This document shows positions 14,616 to 28,248 of a stretch of 59,607 bases of DNA, one piece after another (position 1 is the stretch's first letter; each line of letters starts with the position of its first letter). The notes below the pieces were generated by a model, which saw only the letters and a program-made list of their open reading frames with translations, was not told the DNA's origin and searched no databases. The position numbers and the translations under genes were made by a program. The stretch is from positions 1 to 59,607 of the forward strand of contig DUEC01000027.1 of assembly GCA_011176635.1 (NCBI GenBank), written 5' to 3'. The stretch is from Dehalococcoidia bacterium (lineage in GTDB: Bacteria > Chloroflexota > Dehalococcoidia > Dehalococcoidales > BS750m-G39).

Positions 14616-15383
14616 GTGGACCAGACCGATTCCATCTCAGAGATGATTCTAAGGTCAAAAAGGCTGGTGGTCTTCACCGGGGCCGGCATCAGCACCGAAT
14701 CGGGCGTTGCCGATTTTCGCAGCCCGGGGGGAATCTGGGAGCGGTTCGACCCCAACGAGCTTAACTACCAGAGCTTTCTGGCTAGCGAGGAAGGCAGGGA
14801 GAAGTACTGGCAGTTCTCTCGTGTCCTCTGGACAGAGATAGCCAAGGCCCAACCCAATGCCGGTCACCATGCCATCGCCGAGCTACACCGCCTGGGCAAG
14901 CTGGAGTGCCTGATAACCCAGAATATAGATAGTCTGCATCAAAAGTCCGGCGTCCCCGAGGAAAAGATAATCGAACTGCACGGCACGCTCAAGTGGGTCA
15001 ACTGCCTGGAATGCGGGCAGAGATACCCCAGGGAGCAAATCCAGGCCAGGCTTGACTCCGGTACCAAGGTGCCGCGGTGCGATAGCTGCCAGGGCATCAT
15101 GAAGCCGGCCACCGTTGCCTTCGGCCAGCCGATGCCCGAAGAAGAGACCCGCCAGGCGGAAGCGGCCGCTGCCGCCTGCGACCTGTTTCTATCGGTCGGC
15201 TCATCGCTGGTGGTCTACCCCGCCGCCCAGATGCCCTTAATCGCCAAGGATAACGGCGCCAGACTGGTTATCATCAACCTGACGCCGACCCCTCACGACC
15301 ACTATGCCGATATCGTAATCCAGGAAAAGACCGGCCCGGCGCTGTCCCGGATAGCCAAAAAGGTAAAGGCGCTCTTAAGTTGA
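14616..15383 (+). CDS. cobB: NAD-dependent protein deacylase, Sir2 family
   Basis: 255 aa. Motifs seen: GAGISTESG..DFRS, TQNIDSLH, and a Zn module CxxC...CxxC (CLECG...CDSC). The start is uncertain: GTG at 14616 or ATG at 14643. Confidence 0.85.
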   Translation: MDQTDSISEMILRSKRLVVFTGAGISTESGVADFRSPGGIWERFDPNELNYQSFLASEEGREKYWQFSRVLWTEIAKAQPNAGHHAIAELHRLGKLECLITQNIDSLHQKSGVPEEKIIELHGTLKWVNCLECGQRYPREQIQARLDSGTKVPRCDSCQGIMKPATVAFGQPMPEEETRQAEAAAAACDLFLSVGSSLVVYPAAQMPLIAKDNGARLVIINLTPTPHDHYADIVIQEKTGPALSRIAKKVKALLS

Positions 15384-16609
15384 GACTGAAATTAGTCTTT
15401 ATAAGCCTGCTGTTGCTCTGCCTGCTCGGCGCGGGCTGTTCTTCCGCACAGGACTTCGATAGCCACCTCAACTCAATCGTGGACCCCTATCGCTTCAACT
15501 GGGTGATGTGGGAGCTTGAGTCTTTATGCTATGAAATCGGGCAGTGGTTTTCCGGGGACAGTGTAGAACCCGAAGACCAACCGGCCACGGTAATAGAGTA
15601 TTTCGAGCTGGGGGAGCAGATAAGAAGCCTGGAATGGGAGATAGCCACCGTCGGCGCCGGCAATGAAGAGGGGGACTTAGCCGCGCTTGAGGCCGAGCTG
15701 GAGAGCCTGCAAGAGCAAAGGGCGGCTCTAACCAGCAGTGTCGAGAGGATAATAGCCAGCCAGATAAGAGAGGTCCTGGCCGAGCAGGGCATCTTCCACC
15801 CGGCCTATCAATATATAGGGCTGGAGATTAGCTTCCCGCCGCTGAACTTCAGGCTGGGTGAACTGCCCCACCTGCTGGTGGTTTCGCCCCGGGAGAGCAT
15901 AGAGAGCATGAGGGAGATAGCCCTCAGAGCCGACCTCGCCCTGGAGGAAATAGAGAGCATTGAAGAGCAGGTCGATGAACTGGGCGTCTCCGCCCTGGTG
16001 GTGAGGCTGGGCGGTGCCGGGGCGCTGTATCCCACACTGGTCACCGACAACGCCAGCCTGCAGTTCACCATCAACGCCGCCGTCGAGGAATGGCTGCACC
16101 AATACCTGGCCTTCAAGCCGCTGGGCTTTCTCTACATACTTGACCTTCTCGGCATATCCCGAAACTATGAAATCGCCACCATGAACGAGACCCTGGCCAG
16201 CATGGTCAGCGACGAAATCGGCGCCATCGTCTTGGAAAGATACTACCCCGAATACGTCAATAACGGCCAGCCCCAAGACGGTGGAGGGTTTGACTTCAAC
16301 CAGGAGATGAGGGAGATAAGAATAACCGTCGACCAATACCTGGCACAGGGAGAGACGGAGCTGGCCGAGGAATACATGGAGGAGAGGCGGCAGTACCTAG
16401 CCTCAACGGGCTATTACATCAGAAAGCTGAACCAGGCCTATTTTGCTTTTTACGGCGCCTATGCCGACAGCCCGACCTCCGTCAGCCCCATCGGGGCCGA
16501 GCTCAGAGAGCTAAGGGAGCAAAGCGCCTCACTGGGGGACTTCCTGGAAACGGTCGCCGGCATGAGCAGCCGACAGGAGCTAAGCGATATATTAAGCGAG
16601 AGCCAATAG
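15380..16609 (+). CDS. Hypothetical lipoprotein
   Basis: 409 aa. The TTG start overlaps the cobB stop (TTGA). The N-terminus MRLKLVFISLLLLCLLGAGCSS contains a lipobox. The rest is unrecognised. Confidence 0.55.
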   Translation: MRLKLVFISLLLLCLLGAGCSSAQDFDSHLNSIVDPYRFNWVMWELESLCYEIGQWFSGDSVEPEDQPATVIEYFELGEQIRSLEWEIATVGAGNEEGDLAALEAELESLQEQRAALTSSVERIIASQIREVLAEQGIFHPAYQYIGLEISFPPLNFRLGELPHLLVVSPRESIESMREIALRADLALEEIESIEEQVDELGVSALVVRLGGAGALYPTLVTDNASLQFTINAAVEEWLHQYLAFKPLGFLYILDLLGISRNYEIATMNETLASMVSDEIGAIVLERYYPEYVNNGQPQDGGGFDFNQEMREIRITVDQYLAQGETELAEEYMEERRQYLASTGYYIRKLNQAYFAFYGAYADSPTSVSPIGAELRELREQSASLGDFLETVAGMSSRQELSDILSESQ

Positions 16610-16650
16610 TACCAAAGGTGGATGTTAAGATGCCTTATCCTGACTTTACC

Positions 16651-17655
16651 TTAACGCGGATACTGCAGAAAGCCATTCTCAATAGCCGCCCGAACCTCAT
16701 CGTTGAGCCGGCCGTTGCCATTGGTATCGGTCACCATATTGAAAAGCAGTGCCGCCAGCCCGCTGACATGGGCGCAGGCGAAAGAAGTGCCGCTCTTATA
16801 GCCGTAGTCGTTATCGGGCAAGGTGGAGTAGATATTAAAGCCAGGAGCAGCCACGTCCACCCAATCGCCGTAGTTTGACAGCGGCGCCAGGGTATCATCC
16901 TCGGTGGTAGCCGCCACGGCGATACAGTTTTCATAATAAGCGGGATAGACCGGCGACGAACTGCCGTCATTACCAGCGGCAGCGATAATCACCGCTCCCC
17001 TGTCCCAGGCATAATTTATGGCTTCCTCCAGCTCCGCTGAAGGCCCTCTAAGCTCAATGCTGATATTGATGACGCTGGCCCCATTATCAACGGCCCAGAT
17101 GATGCCCGTGGCCAGGGTTGACGCCTGACACAGACCACCGTCGCCAGCCACCTTGATATTCATCAGCCAGCTCTCCGGCGCCATACCGGCAATGCCCAGA
17201 CCGTTATCACTGTAAGCGGCGATAATACCGGCTACGTGAGTACCGTGCCCGTAAACGTCGCCTGAGGTCGGACTGCCACTAAAATTAATCTCAATTATCA
17301 CCTTGCCGGCCAGGTCTTCGTGGTCTGGGTCGATGCCGGTATCGAGGACTGCCACCACTACTCCAGAGCCCCCGCTGGCGGTCTGCCACAAATCAATTAT
17401 CTGAAGCTGGCCAAGCGCCCACTGGTTAGCCAGATAGGGGTCGTTGGAGATTCTTGCCTCAGATTGGTCAGGCATGGCCGCAGCGGCAGGGCTGCCGTCA
17501 CCAGAAGTAAGCGCCCCGGCTTGGGCCGCCGGCGTAAGCCTTGCCGTATTGCCGCTGGTCGCCAGGGTACCGACGCCCAGTCCTCCGACTGAGATTACCA
17601 GGTAGCTGACGACTAATACTATAAATAATGGAACGGTGAACTTTAATGTCTTCAT
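16651..17655 (-). CDS. Secreted S8 (subtilisin-like) serine peptidase
   Basis: 334 aa with a signal peptide. The catalytic triad contexts are present: VAVLDTGID (Asp), HGTHVAG (His), SGTSFACAHVSG (Ser). Confidence 0.87.
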   Translation of the reverse strand: MKTLKFTVPLFIVLVVSYLVISVGGLGVGTLATSGNTARLTPAAQAGALTSGDGSPAAAAMPDQSEARISNDPYLANQWALGQLQIIDLWQTASGGSGVVVAVLDTGIDPDHEDLAGKVIIEINFSGSPTSGDVYGHGTHVAGIIAAYSDNGLGIAGMAPESWLMNIKVAGDGGLCQASTLATGIIWAVDNGASVINISIELRGPSAELEEAINYAWDRGAVIIAAAGNDGSSSPVYPAYYENCIAVAATTEDDTLAPLSNYGDWVDVAAPGFNIYSTLPDNDYGYKSGTSFACAHVSGLAALLFNMVTDTNGNGRLNDEVRAAIENGFLQYPR

Positions 17656-17822
17656 CTATCATTATATCTATCACAGCCCAAGCCTCACAGGAATAGCTAG
17701 ATAGTCTCAAAGTGGGGGGGCAATTAGTAATGTGACTGGCGTCATAGCCCTTTTGGTACTTTTTTCGCCTGCTGACCTAATACTGGTGTGGGTAAAATAG
17801 GGAAAGGATAGGATAAGTAGTC

Positions 17823-17879
17823 TTGACAACTACCATTTGATGGAGTACTATTTACCCAATACTATTTACCTATAGTACT
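17823..17879 (+). promoter_or_regulatory. Putative sigma70 promoter of the sipW operon with overlapping direct and inverted repeats (candidate operator)
   Basis: TTGACA (17823-17828), 17 nt, TACTAT (17846-17851). An 11-bp direct repeat tactatttacc occurs at 17846-17856 and 17860-17870. An 8-bp inverted repeat pairs agtactat (17844-17851) with atagtact (17872-17879). Confidence 0.4.
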
Positions 17880-17885
17880 GGTAAA

Positions 17886-18440
17886 ATGAAAATTCTGGGC
17901 TGGCTAGTCACAGCAGTGCTGGCTTTAATCGTTGCTGGCTTTCTCTTTGTGTACTTCTCACCCGACTACGATATGCGCCTGGTGAGGAGTGAGAGTATGC
18001 GGCCAGCCATCAATATGGGGGACATGGTAATCACCGGTCCCGTAGGTGGAGAGGTCGAACCAGGGACCATCATAACCTATCAGCGTGGGGAAGAGCTGGT
18101 CACCCACAGGGTGCTCTCGGTTGACGGTGACACCCTGGTGACCAAGGGTGACGCCGTGGAAGACCCCGACCCCTGGCCGGTTACCCTCTCAGATGTCGAG
18201 GGTGTTTACCTCTTCAAGCTTCCCTATGTCGGCTATCTAGCCAATTTCATCGGCACCAAGCTTGGTTGGTTCTTAGTGATTATTCTTCCCGCCACAGCGC
18301 TGGTGGCTCTCATTGTCAGAGATATCTTCAAAGAGCTGGGACGCAATAAAGAGCCGGAGCGCAGTCCGGAAAAAATAAATCGTCAACCGGAAAAAGTAAC
18401 CCCAAAAAGGGAGGTGATGCCTAAAGACCTGTGGGACTGA
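17886..18440 (+). CDS. sipW: Signal peptidase I, SipW (archaeal/ER S26B) type
   Basis: 184 aa with an N-terminal TM segment, then SESMRPAINMGDMVI (catalytic Ser context), THRV (His context), a second TM and a basic tail. Confidence 0.8.
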   Translation: MKILGWLVTAVLALIVAGFLFVYFSPDYDMRLVRSESMRPAINMGDMVITGPVGGEVEPGTIITYQRGEELVTHRVLSVDGDTLVTKGDAVEDPDPWPVTLSDVEGVYLFKLPYVGYLANFIGTKLGWFLVIILPATALVALIVRDIFKELGRNKEPERSPEKINRQPEKVTPKREVMPKDLWD

Positions 18441-18488
18441 TAAAACCTTTAAAGGCAGACTAACAAATTACAGGAGGAATAAGAGAAG

Positions 18489-19649
18489 TTGAAAAAGATA
18501 ATTGGATTGACAATAGCAATTTTAGCCATAATCGGATTGGTTGTTGGCGGCACCCTTGCTTACTTCACTGATACCGAGACCAGCACCGACAACACCTTTA
18601 CCGCGGGGACAATTGACATTGACGTCAACGGTGAAAATCCCTGGGAAGGTGAAGGCTATTTCACTATTGAGGACATGAAGCCCTGCGCTGTCGAGCTCAT
18701 AGACTTCACCATTACCAATGTGGGTGAGAATGAAGTCGATGTCTGGAAGCATCTGGATGTGACTGGCTTCAATACTGGAATAACAGTTTATCCTGACCCT
18801 TCTAGCGGGCCGGTCTCTTCAGAGCCTGAATATCTGGCTGAAGGTGCGGTGTATGACCCTGTAACTTTAACATGGGATGACACTTACTTTTCAGCAATCG
18901 ATGACATCAGCCAAGTCATCAATTATGACCTCACAGTGGATGGTGTGGTAATTATTGACGAAACAGACGATGTACAGATGGCCGACATCGATTGCTGCTG
19001 GATATACCTCGGGGTAATACAGCCGGGAGCAAGCATGGAGGTAACCCAGAGCTATCACATGCAAGGCGATACCGGAAATGAGTATCAGGGCGATGTTGTG
19101 GAATTCACCATTGAGCTCTTTGCCCAGCAGACAGTAGGCTGTCCGCCACCTCCAGGCACTGAATGTGATCTTTACGGAAAGCCTTTCCTGGATTACATTG
19201 ACATTGACAGTACGTCTAGCATGAGCGCTCACAATGCTTGGGGATGGTTCCCTGACCCAGGAGTAGGGAATTACGGCCTTCGAGATGGTGGTTCCTCCAT
19301 TGCCATGATTGGCGGGGATGATGATGGTGGTGGTACCTGTGATATGGATGAGAATGATGCCACCTTTGAAATGAATGCTTGCGCAGAGACGGCCAATAAC
19401 CTGGTTATCAGACACCTTGACGGTTCAGCTAACGACTCGTTCGATATCTATGTAGATGGTGTTTACGTGACCAACTATGTCGGCGGCACAATACCGGGTG
19501 AAGTTTGGGTTACAACAACCTTCCCTCTCGGCGCCCAAGCCTTTACCGGTCAAGCAACGATAAGGTTAGTCATTACCGGAAACTATCCCTGGCCTAGCTG
19601 TCTGACATACGGACAAGGTGCGGTTAACTGGGCATATATTACAAAGTAG
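18489..19649 (+). CDS. TasA/camelysin-family secreted protein with a SipW-cognate signal peptide and an extra C-terminal beta-rich domain
   Basis: 386 aa with a TTG start after AGGAGG. The N-terminus ..GGTLAYFTDTETSTDNTFTAGTIDIDV matches the SipW-dependent signal/TasA N-terminal pattern. Confidence 0.7.
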   Translation: MKKIIGLTIAILAIIGLVVGGTLAYFTDTETSTDNTFTAGTIDIDVNGENPWEGEGYFTIEDMKPCAVELIDFTITNVGENEVDVWKHLDVTGFNTGITVYPDPSSGPVSSEPEYLAEGAVYDPVTLTWDDTYFSAIDDISQVINYDLTVDGVVIIDETDDVQMADIDCCWIYLGVIQPGASMEVTQSYHMQGDTGNEYQGDVVEFTIELFAQQTVGCPPPPGTECDLYGKPFLDYIDIDSTSSMSAHNAWGWFPDPGVGNYGLRDGGSSIAMIGGDDDGGGTCDMDENDATFEMNACAETANNLVIRHLDGSANDSFDIYVDGVYVTNYVGGTIPGEVWVTTTFPLGAQAFTGQATIRLVITGNYPWPSCLTYGQGAVNWAYITK

Positions 19650-19693
19650 TAAGACGGGATTTAAGAATCTTAAGGATTTAATGTAGACAGGGT

Positions 19694-19721
19694 GGTGGGG
19701 TGAGAGAGGTTTCACCCCACC
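19694..19721 (+). terminator. Perfect 10-bp hairpin downstream of the first TasA-like gene (possible partial terminator/attenuator that raises the relative level of the major subunit transcript)
   Basis: ggtggggtga (19694-19703) pairs with tcaccccacc (19712-19721) across an 8-nt loop. No U-tract follows, so intrinsic termination is uncertain. Confidence 0.35.
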
Positions 19722-19823
19722 AGAGACCTGTTATAATGAGAGCTTAAAGCGATAGCGTAAGCTATAGCGGCAAGCAGGTATAGCTATGAATAGAATGCTG
19801 AAAGAAAGGAGGTGCCATAAATA

Positions 19824-20567
19824 ATGAAGAAGGTTTTAGTCCTCTCATTAGCTCTTATCCTCCTGCTGGGGATAATGAGCAATGGCACCTCCAGCTATTT
19901 CAGTGACACCGAGACTGGCTCTGGTACCATATGTGCCTGGCTAGGCTGCCCGCCTGGAAGTATGATAATTGTCAGCGACACGAATACAATGGTCACCGAG
20001 GTCAACAACGCGCTACTAATTACTCCCCAAAATGCGGTACCTGCCTGGGAGCCATGTCTTTCATATCCAGCTTGTGACACAAGCATAGAAGATGACCCTT
20101 CACTCTGGGATAACAGCACGGGTAATTACTTCACTCTTACAGGTGCCGACTGGATATGGGACACTCGATTAACCAGTGACCCGGCAGCGGATGCGCCGGT
20201 ACTAGGACGGGTGGTGCGCTTTGAAAGGACATTCGATATCCCCTGCTCGCCGATTGGGGCTACCCTGCATATGGCAGTGGATAACGGCTACACCGTCTGG
20301 CTAAATGGAAACCTTGTCGGTTGCGCACAGGTTAATTCCGGTGGGGCTGACCCCTGTATAGACTGGTGGACCACTGACCTCACAGAGGCTTACGTGCATA
20401 CCGACGGCTGGCAGACTGTAGGGCATTATGCTATTCCTTCAATGTACTTAGTAGTCGGGACGAATACCCTCGTAATCCTGGCCGCTAATGAGCAGCTGCC
20501 GGATGGTACGGCGGAGAGCAATCCCGCCGGGTTAATTTACCAGCTTGAAGTTACATGGGGAGATTGA
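19824..20567 (+). CDS. Secreted protein with a SipW-cognate-type signal (SYFSDTETGSG) and a C-terminal beta-sandwich, possibly carbohydrate-binding-like, domain
   Basis: 247 aa with an AAGGAGG SD. The N-terminal motif is shared with the 18489 gene. Confidence 0.62.
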   Translation: MKKVLVLSLALILLLGIMSNGTSSYFSDTETGSGTICAWLGCPPGSMIIVSDTNTMVTEVNNALLITPQNAVPAWEPCLSYPACDTSIEDDPSLWDNSTGNYFTLTGADWIWDTRLTSDPAADAPVLGRVVRFERTFDIPCSPIGATLHMAVDNGYTVWLNGNLVGCAQVNSGGADPCIDWWTTDLTEAYVHTDGWQTVGHYAIPSMYLVVGTNTLVILAANEQLPDGTAESNPAGLIYQLEVTWGD

Positions 20568-22288
20568 TGACGATAAAGATGGGAAACGGTAGAATTATTA
20601 AGTATGCCGCCAGGCTGTTGCTGGCGGTAATAATAGGGCTGTTTATGCTCGGCTCATCACCGACCCCGGTACAAGCCGCAGACCCGCCATCAATAATCCT
20701 GACCCTGGGAGGAACGGGAGCTACCCCCTGGAGCATAGATGGTATTATGCCCTGCCAGAGCGGCACCGAGACGCTCACCCTGCACAACGCCGGTAACCTG
20801 GACGGCTTTGTTATTATCTGGATAGAAAATATCGTCAGCGATGAAGGTCTAAACTCCGAACCCGAAACTAATACCGCACCCGAAGACGGCGGTGAGCTTG
20901 ATGACTACCTGCTGTTTGACCTCTCCACCAACCCCGCCGGCGCTCTAGATACCAACCTAGCTCCGCCGACGACCATTGACAACTTCCCCCAGGACGCTTT
21001 CGACCCCAACTATATCTGGATAGTCCCCTTAAACCCCGGTGATACCGTCACCCTGAATTGGCATTGGGAGCTACCCTGCGCCACCGGTAACGATGCCCAG
21101 GGAGATACCCTTTCCTTCGACATAACCTATTTCCTGGTCGACGATTTTCCTCCTCCGCCGCCTCCACCTCTATTCACCGGCGGCCCTGGTGCTGAGGAGG
21201 ATTGTTTCATGGAAATAGACATGCTGGGTGAAATAACCATCATAGAGATGGACTGTTGTCTCAACAGGTCCCTTGAAGAAGAGCTGGCCTATGACCCCGA
21301 TGACCTGCACTTCATGGAGATTCTCTATAACATGGAGATACTTTGCGGTGAGTGTGCGGGATGCTACTGCTTCCCCCGCGTAGTGGTGATGAGTCTGTCC
21401 GAGCATGGACCGCCTCCACCGGAGGATATGACAACAGTAGGCCCGATTTATGATTTTACGGGGTATGAAGACAGCGACAGGAATGACCCCTGCTCTATCG
21501 CCACCTTCTTCGACCCGTTACTGATAATACAGCTCAGCTATAACCCCGACGACCTGCCTCCTGGCGCTTCTTCACCCGTTATCGCCTTTTATGACGATGT
21601 ACAGGGCTTATGGGTTACCCTACCCCCTGCCAGCGGTATACCGGCCGAAATCGGCAGGATAACCGCAGAGACAAATTACCTCGCTTCACCGTTCGCCATA
21701 CTGGTGAACGTACCTCCCCCATCCCAACCCCCCACTCTGGCCAATTTTGTGGTCAGTGACTTGAACATCACACCCGGCGTGAGGGAAATATGGCAGCCGG
21801 TTACCTTTGTCACCAAGACGGGAGAAAGCGTCACCATCACCGCCAATGTAACTAATGACGGCGGGCAGGCGGGCACTTTTACCGTCGAGCTACAGATAAA
21901 CGGGGAGACAATAGCCACTAAAGAAGTAACGCCGGGTGCCGGTCAAAGCGAGCTGGTAAGCTTCACCCTGACCGACTTAGAATCGGGGCGTTATGGGGTA
22001 ATGCTTTCCGGCTTGAGCGGTGATTTCAGGGTGTTCCTGAGCATCAACTGGTGGCTCATAATAAGTATAATCGCTGCCCTCTTGCTGTTAGGCTGGCTGA
22101 ACTGGTATCTCTGGTATCGTAAAAAGTGGCCCCGCGTTTGGAATCGCAGAAAGTGGCCCCGCATAAATTGGGCCCGCATCTGGTCTGATACCAAGGGGGC
22201 TCCCGTTTGGAAACGTGGATACTGGGCCCGCATCTGGTCACATATTCAGTCCTTTATAAAGGGGCTGAGACCAAAGCTGGCGTCTTAA
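20567..22288 (+). CDS. Membrane-anchored protein: signal peptide, TasA-like N-terminal domain, central domain, CARDB-like domain, TM helix, and a Trp/Arg-rich repeat tail
   Basis: The ORF is 20555..22288. I prefer the ATG at 20567, which overlaps the upstream TGA (TGATG) and follows GGGGAG. Signal cleavage is predicted at ..PVQA/ADPP. The CARDB-like segment is VVSDLNITPG...VTITANVTNDGGQAGTFTVEL.ING. The TM is WWLIISIIAALLLLGWLNWYLW. Confidence 0.62.
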   Translation: MTIKMGNGRIIKYAARLLLAVIIGLFMLGSSPTPVQAADPPSIILTLGGTGATPWSIDGIMPCQSGTETLTLHNAGNLDGFVIIWIENIVSDEGLNSEPETNTAPEDGGELDDYLLFDLSTNPAGALDTNLAPPTTIDNFPQDAFDPNYIWIVPLNPGDTVTLNWHWELPCATGNDAQGDTLSFDITYFLVDDFPPPPPPPLFTGGPGAEEDCFMEIDMLGEITIIEMDCCLNRSLEEELAYDPDDLHFMEILYNMEILCGECAGCYCFPRVVVMSLSEHGPPPPEDMTTVGPIYDFTGYEDSDRNDPCSIATFFDPLLIIQLSYNPDDLPPGASSPVIAFYDDVQGLWVTLPPASGIPAEIGRITAETNYLASPFAILVNVPPPSQPPTLANFVVSDLNITPGVREIWQPVTFVTKTGESVTITANVTNDGGQAGTFTVELQINGETIATKEVTPGAGQSELVSFTLTDLESGRYGVMLSGLSGDFRVFLSINWWLIISIIAALLLLGWLNWYLWYRKKWPRVWNRRKWPRINWARIWSDTKGAPVWKRGYWARIWSHIQSFIKGLRPKLAS

Positions 22289-22387
22289 AAAGAGCCTCCC
22301 CGCTTTTTCACCCCCTAAGCTATTATCCTATCCCAGCGCCACCGACTTGCTAAAAGCCATCACACCCTCTAAAATATCAGATAGTCC

Positions 22388-22460
22388 GGGCCGCTAGCTC
22401 AACTGGCAGAGCAGCTGACTCTTAATCAGCAGGTTGGAGGTTCGAGTCCTCCGCGGCTCA
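22388..22460 (+). tRNA. tRNA-Lys (anticodon CTT)
   Basis: A 73-nt cloverleaf read by hand. Acceptor gggccgc/gcggctc (one G-U); D-arm gctc/gagc; anticodon arm gctga-ctCTTaa-tcagc; T-arm ggagg-ttcgagt-cctcc; discriminator A. CCA is not encoded. Confidence 0.9.
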
Positions 22461-22480
22461 TTTCAAAGCTAAATCGGCTT
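22418..22480 (+). repeat. attL: 63-bp direct repeat (43 nt of the tRNA-Lys 3' part plus 20 nt downstream)
   Basis: Identical to 27590-27652 except for two positions (G/A and C/T). These two positions pair with each other in the T-stem. Confidence 0.88.
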
Positions 22481-22497
22481 TCCCTACGCCGTAAAAG

Positions 22498-26499: not shown

Positions 26500-27503
26500 A
26501 CGGGCCAGATTGGGACACAAGATATAGTAAGCACTATGTCCGCCGGGACGGCTGGTTACCAGCGAGTAAAGAATACATAAAAAAAACAGGAAAATCGGTA
26601 GTAAAGTATTTTACTCTATGTGATGTTCATGCAATAGATATATTCATGCTTGAGATGGAAGGAATTCTCCCCCGGGATGAGAATGGTAAACTACCAAATG
26701 TTATAATTTGTGAAGGATCCGTACACAAAGTTCCATTAATAAATAAGTTAGTGAAACCACCGTTAGAAGAAGCAATTATACTTGCAAACCTTGAGGATCT
26801 TATTACGTTTGAAGACGATGAATACACAAGAACTACGCCGTTGAAGACGTATGAAAGAGACAGATCAAAAAGGCAAAGGCTTAGGTTAAAAGAAAGGCAC
26901 GAGCGTTTCAAGCTGTTTCTTCCGTTTGACATTATCAATTTTGATCCGAGCAATAGTATATTAGGACAAGCGCTAGAAGTTAATAAGTTGTATAAAGCTC
27001 TTGAGAAAATATTCGAATTGCAGAAATTAACCAATTATTTCTTATTGTTCGTTACTACCAATATATCAAATCCACACGTCAGCATAGTGAGAAAATGCAT
27101 GAAGGAACTCGGCGAGAACCTGGAAAAGTATCCAAGATTGAAAGAAGCAATGACTAAGCGTTTGGGTGAAGTAGAATACAATAAGATACCTGAGCAATAT
27201 AGAATACCAATCTGCTTTGTTAAATCATTCGTGGTTGATATTGCAAGGCGGAAGGGATGGTATTGTGAACATAGAGGGGTTTTCGTGTATGAAAATCCAG
27301 ATAAAAGTAAAATGTTGGCTTCGGTTGTCTTTTGTACGCAAGTAAGAGGCGAACAAGATGAAGCAGCGTATCTTAATGATATTATCAGCGTGATTGGAGG
27401 CCAGATGAAGTATCACTCTTATGCTGATTCATTAAAGGATAAGCCCATTCAAGAGGACTTAAAAGCGATAATAAGTTACAGAGAGAAGGTGCGTAGGGGC
27501 TAG
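26496..27503 (+). CDS. Orphan hypothetical protein (335 aa), third gene of the cargo operon
   Basis: The start overlaps the upstream stop (ATGA). I recognise no motif. There is a basic patch (YERDRSKRQRLRLKERHERFK) and alternating beta/alpha-like segments (KYFTLCDVHAIDIF, FDIINFDPSNS, FLLFVTTN). Confidence 0.6.
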   Translation: MNGPDWDTRYSKHYVRRDGWLPASKEYIKKTGKSVVKYFTLCDVHAIDIFMLEMEGILPRDENGKLPNVIICEGSVHKVPLINKLVKPPLEEAIILANLEDLITFEDDEYTRTTPLKTYERDRSKRQRLRLKERHERFKLFLPFDIINFDPSNSILGQALEVNKLYKALEKIFELQKLTNYFLLFVTTNISNPHVSIVRKCMKELGENLEKYPRLKEAMTKRLGEVEYNKIPEQYRIPICFVKSFVVDIARRKGWYCEHRGVFVYENPDKSKMLASVVFCTQVRGEQDEAAYLNDIISVIGGQMKYHSYADSLKDKPIQEDLKAIISYREKVRRG

Positions 27504-27589
27504 AATAAATGTCTAGCAGTCTAGAACAGCTGAAAGCCGGGCAAAGCCTTTATTCTTAAGGGCCGGTTTTGCTGGTTTTCGCCAGCAGA

Positions 27590-27652
27590 ACTCTTAATCA
27601 GCAGGTTAGAGGTTCGAGTCCTCTGCGGCTCATTTCAAAGCTAAATCGGCTT
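27590..27652 (+). repeat. attR: second copy of the 63-bp tRNA-Lys 3' repeat
   Basis: actcttaatcagcaggttAgaggttcgagtcctcTgcggctcatttcaaagctaaatcggctt. See the attL entry. Confidence 0.88.
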
Positions 27653-27783
27653 ACCGGGTTTAAGGCCTCCCACCACACCACATTTGAAAGCAACTAGTTT
27701 TACTATTGGCCTTACTATTAATATAATAGAGTCATTGCGGTAACCAGCGGTTTTTAAGACTTTGGCAAAAGGAGTGAAAAGAA

Positions 27784-28248
27784 ATGGCCGAACTAAAACA
27801 CGCCAAAAATATCATCACCGATACAAAACCTCTCCCTAAGGAGATATGGGAAAAAATGCAGGCTTTGCCCAAAGAGGCCGCCACTGCTGTCAAAGCAACC
27901 CGCCTGCTATGGCTGGACGATGATGTGGCTAAAGGGGCTTTTTACATGGAGGGGCTCTGGTTCTGGGAAGGCTCCCAGAAGATTTCTATGGAGGAGCCCC
28001 ATGTACACGATTTCGACGAGATTATAGGATTTATCGGGACTAACCGGGAAGACCCGCACGATTTGGGGGGAGAGGTCGAGCTATGGCTGGACGACGAAAA
28101 ACACATCCTCAAAAAGAGCTGCCTCGTCTTTATCCCCAGAGGACTGAAGCATTGCCCCTTGTTCTTCCGGAGGATTGACTCCCCTATTTTCTGGTTTACC
28201 ATTGGCAACTCCAGTATGTACTCCAGGGAGTCTAAAGAAACGCCTTAA
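27784..28248 (+). CDS. Cupin-superfamily protein (single cupin domain), paralogue family member 1
   Basis: 154 aa. Cupin motif 1 is HVHDFDEIIGFIG (HxHx3Ex6G) and motif 2 is IPRGLKH (PxGxxH). It is alignable with 38282..38722 and 38732..39181. Confidence 0.62.
   Translation: MAELKHAKNIITDTKPLPKEIWEKMQALPKEAATAVKATRLLWLDDDVAKGAFYMEGLWFWEGSQKISMEEPHVHDFDEIIGFIGTNREDPHDLGGEVELWLDDEKHILKKSCLVFIPRGLKHCPLFFRRIDSPIFWFTIGNSSMYSRESKETP

Follow-up and report, generated by a model that had tools for sequence, protein, structure and literature searches.

An operon that probably encodes a cell-anchored fibre of the TasA superfamily, built by donor-strand exchange from three kinds of subunit, was found in contig DUEC01000027.1 of the Dehalococcoidia bacterium assembly GCA_011176635.1 (59,607 nt, referred to below as the window). 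Four open reading frames (ORFs) on the forward strand fill positions 17886–22288 and specify a signal peptidase, a predicted shaft subunit (protein 2), a predicted tip (protein 3) and a predicted membrane anchor (protein 4). The three secreted proteins show a complementary split of parts: the shaft has a donor strand and a TasA-like body, the tip has the strand joined to an unrelated head, and the anchor has the body without the strand. In addition, the mature shaft-coding region was found to have been replaced as a cassette between close strains. The first-pass annotation of the window had reported these four genes, and all of them were present as it described:

17886–18440, forward strand: signal peptidase ORF, 184 amino acids (aa)
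18489–19649, forward strand: protein 2 (shaft) ORF, 386 aa
19824–20567, forward strand: protein 3 (tip) ORF, 247 aa
20555–22288, forward strand: protein 4 (anchor) ORF, 577 aa

Protein 4 probably starts at 20567 or 20579. The peptidase and shaft genes are separated by 48 nt and the shaft and tip genes by 174 nt, and the anchor gene overlaps or adjoins the tip gene.

In Bacillus, residues 28–38 of TasA, which follow the SipW cut, form a donor strand that inserts into the following subunit, and the N-terminus of TapA mimics this strand and supplies the first one (PMC9674648, PMC10151520). Protein 2 matched Pfam family PF12389 (Peptidase_M73) with 51.9 bits (cut-off 22.5), over residues 2–83 only, and its family profile matched the TasA fibre 8AUR (E 2.5e-4, profile positions 32–215) and the TasA monomer 5OF1, TasA being the sole solved structure of its kind to be matched. 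In the alignment, the segment YF(S/T)DTE..NTFTA occupies the position of the TasA donor strand. The motif (A/S)YF(S/T)DTE had earlier been read as the signature of SipW-type substrates. Protein 2 passed TIGR04088, the model for the SipW-cognate signal (41.8 bits, cut-off 19), but the motif is not merely a signature, since it aligns with the strand that TasA donates. Against the equivalog model for Bacillus TasA (NF046066) protein 2 scored 19.2 bits and failed the cut-off of 450. Judged by these profiles, protein 2 is a distant relative of Bacillus TasA and not its orthologue. Its parts were assigned as follows:

residues 1–24, forward strand: signal peptide, with cleavage expected at A24|Y25
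18561–18605, forward strand: donor strand, Y25–A39
18606–19130, forward strand: predicted TasA-like jelly-roll, about residues 40–214
19191–19646, forward strand: C-terminal CBM6/35-like domain, about residues 235–386

The AlphaFold2 monomer model of the shaft (pLDDT 82) showed two beta domains, at residues 40–214 and 235–385, with the donor segment disordered (residues 19–34). When this model was searched with Foldseek, the C-terminal domain matched CBM6 and CBM35 folds (8j3x; 2vzp, TMt 0.58), with which a weak Pfam CBM_6 match in protein 2 agrees; the extra C-terminal domain previously noticed in the first subunit is borne out. With one such domain on every shaft subunit, sugar-binding modules would run along the fibre. 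The name of the Pfam family invites a different proposal, namely that protein 2 is no structural subunit but a metalloprotease of the camelysin type (M73) that is secreted and binds its substrate through a carbohydrate-binding module (CBM). This is highly improbable: neither HExxH nor any other zinc motif was found in protein 2, the Pfam match is restricted to the 82 or so N-terminal residues given above, and the solved family member, 8AUR, is a fibre subunit. Camelysin-type protease activity was rejected on account of the missing zinc motif.

Protein 3 carries the sequence SYFSDTETG, and its N-terminal peptide reads YFSDTETGSGTICAW. The tip and shaft families could be aligned by hhalign only over about residues 1–39 (98.6% probability), an overlap that consists of the signal peptide and the donor strand (YFSDTETSxGNTFTA):

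residues 1–24, forward strand: SipW-type signal of the tip, with S24|Y25 as the expected cleavage site
19896–19937, forward strand: donor strand of the tip, Y25–A38, followed by a lectin-like beta-sandwich

No Pfam domain was found in protein 3. When its family profile was compared with the sequences in the PDB, the body matched a rhamnosidase N-domain (3w5m, 3.4e-5) and the fungal lectins 6t1d and 6kbj, which bears out the earlier description of the middle protein as lectin-like; TapA was not among the matches. The proteins in the middle position of related loci all keep the full strand segment (..YFSDTETSxGNTFTAW) beyond the cleavage site, and the heads fused to this N-terminus vary from locus to locus: lectin/rhamnosidase-N, Laminin_G_3 with DUF2341 (a Laminin_G_3 tip occurs in locus L021), F5/8 type C, and an SGL/NHL-like propeller. 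Because it has a donor strand and no TasA body, the tip could only donate and hence would initiate. Protein 3 would be a donor-only tip or initiator, analogous to TapA and to TafC of the haloarchaeal Tafi pili, the analogy being one of function only.

Protein 4 has the following parts:

residues 1–41, forward strand: ordinary signal peptide, VQA41|A42
20687–21163, forward strand: TasA-like N-domain, residues 45–203 (domain 49–195 in the AlphaFold2 model)
21203–21709, forward strand: Cys-rich beta domain, residues 217–385, after a Pro linker
21746–22045, forward strand: CARDB domain, residues 398–497
22049–22126, forward strand: membrane helix, residues 499–524, from the structure model
22127–22285, forward strand: Trp/Arg-rich repeat tail

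The N-domain aligned with the TasA-like domain of the shaft (hhalign 97.2%, E 4.6e-11), and this alignment begins exactly where the donor strand ends; the TasA-like body of the anchor starts four residues past VQA|A, with no donor strand before it. Protein 4 itself gave no direct match to Pfam PF12389, and some of its relatives carry a precomputed one. CARDB (PF07705) was recognised over residues 420–480 (26.4 bits, cut-off 22.7). The AlphaFold2 monomer model (pLDDT 76) consists of four parts (N-domain, Cys-rich domain, CARDB and helix), and in a Foldseek search it matched 8AUR with a probability of 1.0 (E 7e-4). The alignment to the shaft, the CARDB score and the modelled C-terminal helix together sustain the earlier view of the last protein as membrane-anchored and TasA-like with CARDB. 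A search with the N-domain among 1.84 billion representatives returned 327 clusters, 185 of them at E <= 1e-10; the anchor family comprises at least 185 clusters, defined at 50% identity. The N-domain starts at about residue 30–55 in nearly all of the anchor matches listed. The donor motif was present in none of the 39 listed relatives (P0121–P0159) and in none of the 144 new representatives examined, 84 of which have a C-terminal hydrophobic segment. The split of parts is a general one and not special to the window. The Trp/Arg-rich tail occurs only in the nearest relatives (P0121; in part also P0122 and P0123); in most of the family the protein stops a few residues past the helix.

With a TasA-like body and no donor strand, the anchor could only accept a strand and hence would terminate the fibre at the membrane. 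Protein 4 thus fits the part of an acceptor-only terminal membrane anchor, analogous to TafF. The first-pass annotation had assigned the parts differently: protein 4 could be the anchor or nucleator, as an analogue of TapA. Spelled out, this arrangement has a fibre made of protein 2, protein 4 as both nucleator and anchor, and protein 3 as a soluble accessory or matrix lectin outside the fibre. In favour of that arrangement, protein 4 is TasA-like and membrane-bound and so is placed where assembly begins, and protein 3 scored 18.4 bits with TIGR04088, just below the cut-off of 19. However, TapA nucleates by donating its N-terminal strand, which protein 4 and all examined relatives lack, and the donor strand is retained in protein 3 and in every protein that replaces it in other loci. 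Since TapA gives the first donor strand, the TapA-like role fits protein 3 and not protein 4, and the arrangement first suggested appears quite unlikely.

The peptidase passed NCBIfam TIGR02228, the model for the archaeal/endoplasmic reticulum (ER)-type signal peptidase I (75.3 bits, cut-off 51.85), and failed the equivalog for Bacillus SipW, NF046067 (66.3 bits, cut-off 190). On established knowledge, its segments SESM, THRV and TKGD are presumably the catalytic Ser, His and Asp boxes. They align with SGSM, VHRV and TKGD of human SEC11A (7P2P) across SxSMxP, HRV and KGD, and the enzyme carries a pair of hydrophobic segments and ends in a charged tail. By sequence it is an ER/archaeal-type (S26B, SipW-like) signal peptidase I. 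It was the sole TIGR02228 match in the host genome (an assembly of 1.1 Mb, 83% complete), in which proteins 2 and 3 are the only SipW-type substrates; protein 4, with its ordinary signal peptide, gave no TIGR04088 match. The N-termini of the subunits read MKKIIGL.., MKKVLVL.. and ..GRIIKYAARLLL.. and are of the Sec type, with no RR motif. The TIGR02228, PF12389 and TIGR04088 matches, together with the alignment of protein 4 to the shaft, uphold the claim that a SipW-type peptidase and TasA-like proteins share one operon. A LepB-type signal peptidase I was not found in the host genome, 83% complete as it is. Were this absence real, the cell would have no signal peptidase I besides the SipW-type enzyme. 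That proposal was rejected, because 36 of the 41 genomes of the order have the LepB type, including all 19 of high quality; its absence is best put down to incompleteness of the assembly, which is probably the cause.

A candidate promoter and a stem-loop accompany these genes:

17823–17851, forward strand: sigma-70-like promoter site TTGACA-17-TACTAT, 10 of 12 consensus matches
19687–19731, forward strand: stem-loop with a perfect 10-bp hairpin as its core (19694–19721), dG -28.4 kcal/mol

The candidate promoter would yield a short leader without a Shine-Dalgarno sequence ahead of the peptidase gene, and the shaft gene is preceded by a strong one, AGGAGG. Both promoter hexamers are identical in L015, the syntenic locus of a sister strain, and the spacer between -35 and -10 differs by several changes. 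Direct and inverted repeats across the -10 region (17844–17879) carry two substitutions in L015. The perfect hairpin after the first subunit gene, also claimed earlier, is real: the 186-nt spacer that holds it folds far better than its shuffles (z = -4.9), and an equivalent hairpin follows the shaft gene in L015, L018, L019, L020, L021 and L022, so that it is kept in all seven loci aligned, the window included. Of the 13 pairs in the alignment, three show compensatory changes, and the lone change in the L015 hairpin keeps pairing (G.U) on the forward strand only. No Rfam family matches it. A hairpin after the gene for a major subunit is a classical way of setting subunit ratios. The stem-loop is a plausible candidate for an attenuator or a 3′-end stabiliser that would raise the shaft over the tip and the anchor.

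If the proteins co-polymerise, the order tip, shaft (n copies), anchor follows from the complementary split. All subunits would be exported by Sec, and the ER-type peptidase would cut the shaft and tip precursors right before YF(S/T)DTE, freeing an N-terminal donor strand in each. The tip would start the fibre, as proposed for TapA and TafC, and end up distal, displaying its lectin-like head. As the shaft subunits both accept and donate, they would polymerise head to tail. The strand left free on the last shaft subunit would be taken up by the anchor, whose stalk of two Pro-rich linkers, the Cys-rich domain and the CARDB domain would hold the fibre to the membrane. In terms of the order of events, growth would proceed tip first at the base, or in reverse. 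The stem-loop, together with tip and anchor genes packed closely side by side, would yield many shaft subunits for one tip and one anchor.

Some of the results weigh against such a fibre. In the Foldseek search of the whole shaft model, the top matches belonged to the C-terminal domain with its CBM folds and did not include TasA, so that the relation of protein 2 to TasA rests on profiles; the anchor model matched 8AUR with a TMt of only 0.40; the donor strand of the window's tip is a shorter variant (..TGSGTICAW), in a protein that, as stated, falls just short of the TIGR04088 cut-off; the hairpin has no U-tract, which makes termination there uncertain; and the sampled complete genomes of cultured type from this order lack the system, for which reason no laboratory observation ties it to a visible fibre. 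It could also be that no polymer is formed, the three proteins being independent substrates of one dedicated peptidase, namely separate carbohydrate-binding surface or S-layer-associated proteins that have no more in common than the type of signal peptide. All three have domains of sugar-binding or Ig type, and monomeric TasA is stable in vitro (PMC9674648). This reading is nevertheless unlikely, since it leaves unexplained why the anchor family has a TasA-like body without the strand, why heads of unrelated kinds are always joined to the complete strand segment past the cleavage site, and why the three gene types occur together in nine loci. A fibre of tip, shaft and anchor accounts better for this distribution of parts and is the reading we retain.

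Systems of this kind are already known, since TasA homologues in Chloroflexota and the tip/shaft/anchor logic of Tafi and AbpX-type loci were published before. PF12389 was reported in Chloroflexota, Actinobacteriota and Patescibacteria by Wang et al. 2022 (PMC9245690), and the NCBI names a ‘TasA family protein [Dehalococcoidales bacterium]’; a system ‘outside the Firmicutes’ is therefore not new. In the archaeal bundling pili AbpA/AbpB, AbpB has been proposed as initiator and adhesin (PMC9245690). The Tafi pili, published in 2025, have a TafC tip, a TafA shaft, a membrane-anchored terminator TafF and a peptidase TafD (PMC11821415), and a tip/shaft/anchor/peptidase logic was proposed for them in haloarchaea (PMC11821415, PMC12337348); Sec-type relatives of Tafi have been reported. 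AbpX-type loci specify donor-strand fibres with variable tip and anchor proteins, and AbpX homologues have been reported in Chloroflexota (bioRxiv 10.64898/2026.01.04.697558).

Compared with tapA-sipW-tasA of Bacillus, the operon has likewise an ER-type peptidase beside its substrates, a major subunit of PF12389, a strand beyond the cleavage site that can be aligned with the one donated by TasA, and a second protein in which only the N-terminus is donor-like. It differs in the CBM6/35-like domain added to the shaft, in an initiator with a lectin head in place of the Ig domain of TapA, in a membrane-anchored TasA-like terminator, of which Bacillus has none, and in gene order; the Bacillus equivalog models were missed widely (19 versus 450 bits for TasA, 66 versus 190 for SipW). 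With Tafi (TafA-G of Haloarcula, TafE of Natrinema), matched on published features, it shares a donor-strand tip with a lectin-type (LamG) head, a shaft, a signal peptidase I, and an anchor with a pilin-like N-domain and a C-terminal membrane helix. Here, however, the signals are of the Sec type and not twin-arginine, the host is a bacterium and the shaft matches PF12389 directly. Neither an adapter subunit (TafE) nor a DUF5305 partner was seen in the operon; Pfam scans of its four proteins and of the three neighbouring genes scanned gave no DUF5305 match. Donor-strand fibres, variable tips and anchors within the locus are shared with the AbpX type, whereas the peptidase linked to AbpX comprises ten membrane helices, against two hydrophobic segments in the small enzyme described here, and the anchors reported for bacteria are SLH or LPXTG proteins instead of a membrane helix. 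Chaperone-usher and sortase pili (FimH/FimA, PapH terminator; tip-shaft-base pilins) resemble the operon in their three-part design, in a terminator or anchor subunit that ends growth, and in the allelic variation known for the major pilin, but their folds and assembly machines are unrelated and genes for a chaperone, usher or sortase are lacking here. TasA-type fibres are an emerging class of surface filament common to bacteria and archaea; the case for a tip-shaft-anchor design in them has until now been made largely on predictions for the Tafi pili of archaea. The operon is a clean sequence-level version of this design in an uncultured bacterial lineage, and would be a candidate attachment structure for Dehalococcoidia-type sediment bacteria.

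A survey of related gene clusters, which had been advised in the first-pass annotation, showed the four-part module (peptidase, shaft, donor-only protein, anchor) to recur in nine loci of related metagenome assemblies, in L018, L020, L021, L022 and L030 within differing genomic contexts. SipW-type substrates were found in 28 of 301 genomes of the same class, a close anchor N-domain in nine genomes of that class (the window's own included), and an ER-type peptidase in 17 of the 41 genomes of the order. A full-text literature search yielded no paper that mentions SipW together with Dehalococcoid*. Among the loci, the shaft comes in at least four designs: one with a CBM-like domain at the C-terminus, one with another C-terminal domain, one with an inserted domain, and a bare form of 221 aa. 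Full-length relatives of the shaft, including the CBM-like C-terminal domain and about 40% identical, were also seen in a Parcubacteria assembly (GCA_030635055.1; L024) and in WWE3 (P0028), and three PF12389 paralogues stand in a row in L024; the presence of such relatives in bacteria of the candidate phyla radiation suggests transfer between phyla. A gene for a helix-turn-helix (HTH) protein of the MerR/HTH_17 type lies directly 5′ of the peptidase gene at L020:1-4451 and L022:369-1587, and L020 has MmeI-type restriction-modification, HTH_3 and M78-peptidase genes close by. From this gene content, mobile DNA may be a vehicle for the module, which in L020 and L022 may also possess a regulator of its own. 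The window's operon has no adjoining HTH regulator.

The conservation of the module and of the hairpin goes beyond what had been noted before, as does the replacement of the shaft cassette, which was observed on comparison with L015:

18622–19691, forward strand: hypervariable cassette that was replaced, extending over the mature part of the shaft gene as far as the hairpin

In blastn comparisons the window and L015 were 93.2% identical over 15380–18621 and 91.5% identical over 19692–22483, with no nucleotide match between these flanks. The similarity to L015, L019, L029 and L030 always ended at 18617–18621 and restarted at 19673–19692. At the protein level, the identities to the window were as follows:

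L015 (sister strain, syntenic): S8 protease 94%, peptidase 96%, shaft 46%, tip 89%, anchor 91%
L022: S8 protease none, peptidase 77%, shaft 76%, tip 69%, anchor 62%

The shaft closest to the window's is thus that of L022, and the L015 shaft is 68% identical to that of L030; the C-terminal domains of the window and L015 shafts are unrelated. The anchor tree paired the window with L015 (100/100) and the shaft tree paired L015 with L030 (100/100). Approximately unbiased (AU) tests, with groups named after the trees had been seen, rejected the swapped groupings (p 7.9e-5 and 3e-64). GC content dips to 0.489 over the cassette. Its right edge is the stem-loop, and because the left breakpoint sits just past the donor strand, the assembly interface stays with the resident flank.

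We tentatively regard the shaft gene as a possible recombination cassette, in which the mature region would be exchangeable between a conserved signal/donor-strand segment (5′) and the stem-loop (3′), these serving as homology arms, in the manner of a pilin-like variation system. Populations would then swap the exposed fibre body, including its lectin-type add-on domains, and keep the assembly interface, the tip and the anchor; this would amount to pilin-like variation in a TasA-type fibre, driven by phages or by the choice of substrate. Such shaft exchange is what one would expect to see in a phage receptor or a niche-specific adhesin. We know of no description of shaft exchange at fixed breakpoints in TasA-type fibres. 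Silent shaft cassettes elsewhere in the genome were considered and rejected: no second PF12389 copy over the cut-off was found in the rest of the host genome, the only other piece being an anchor-gene fragment on contig 12.

On that contig, at 27201–27928 (L031:5201-5928, reverse strand), two short ORFs are anchor-type gene fragments in scrambled order. One fragment, of 339 nt, is 90.9% identical to window positions 21299–21637 and 94.1% identical to L015, and beside it lies a divergent piece of a TasA-like N-domain (49% aa). The fragments adjoin a DUF169 gene and three genes for small secreted or membrane-anchored proteins; in L029 a DUF169 gene comes after the anchor gene and a tRNA-Lys. They could be the remains of a second, decayed locus, the product of a rearrangement, or the outcome of an assembly that mixes strains.

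In the window the operon is bounded at its 3′ side by a tRNA-Lys (22388–22460), followed by an integrated islet. On its 5′ side lies a divergent gene:

16651–17655, reverse strand: S8 subtilase with an N-terminal hydrophobic segment (PF00082, E 1.8e-49), divergent from the peptidase gene

The divergent subtilase is also present in L015, L019 and L029, all syntenic with the window, and in L030, whose outer flanks differ; it is absent at L018, L020, L021 and L022. Because the pairing is kept in L030 despite other outer flanks, the subtilase may be a fifth, optional member of the module. Further upstream, a Sir2-family gene at 14616–15383 is also found in L029 and is absent from the sister strain L015, in which the flanks join directly at this position (window 14608 and 15380 corresponding to L015 2847 and 2889).

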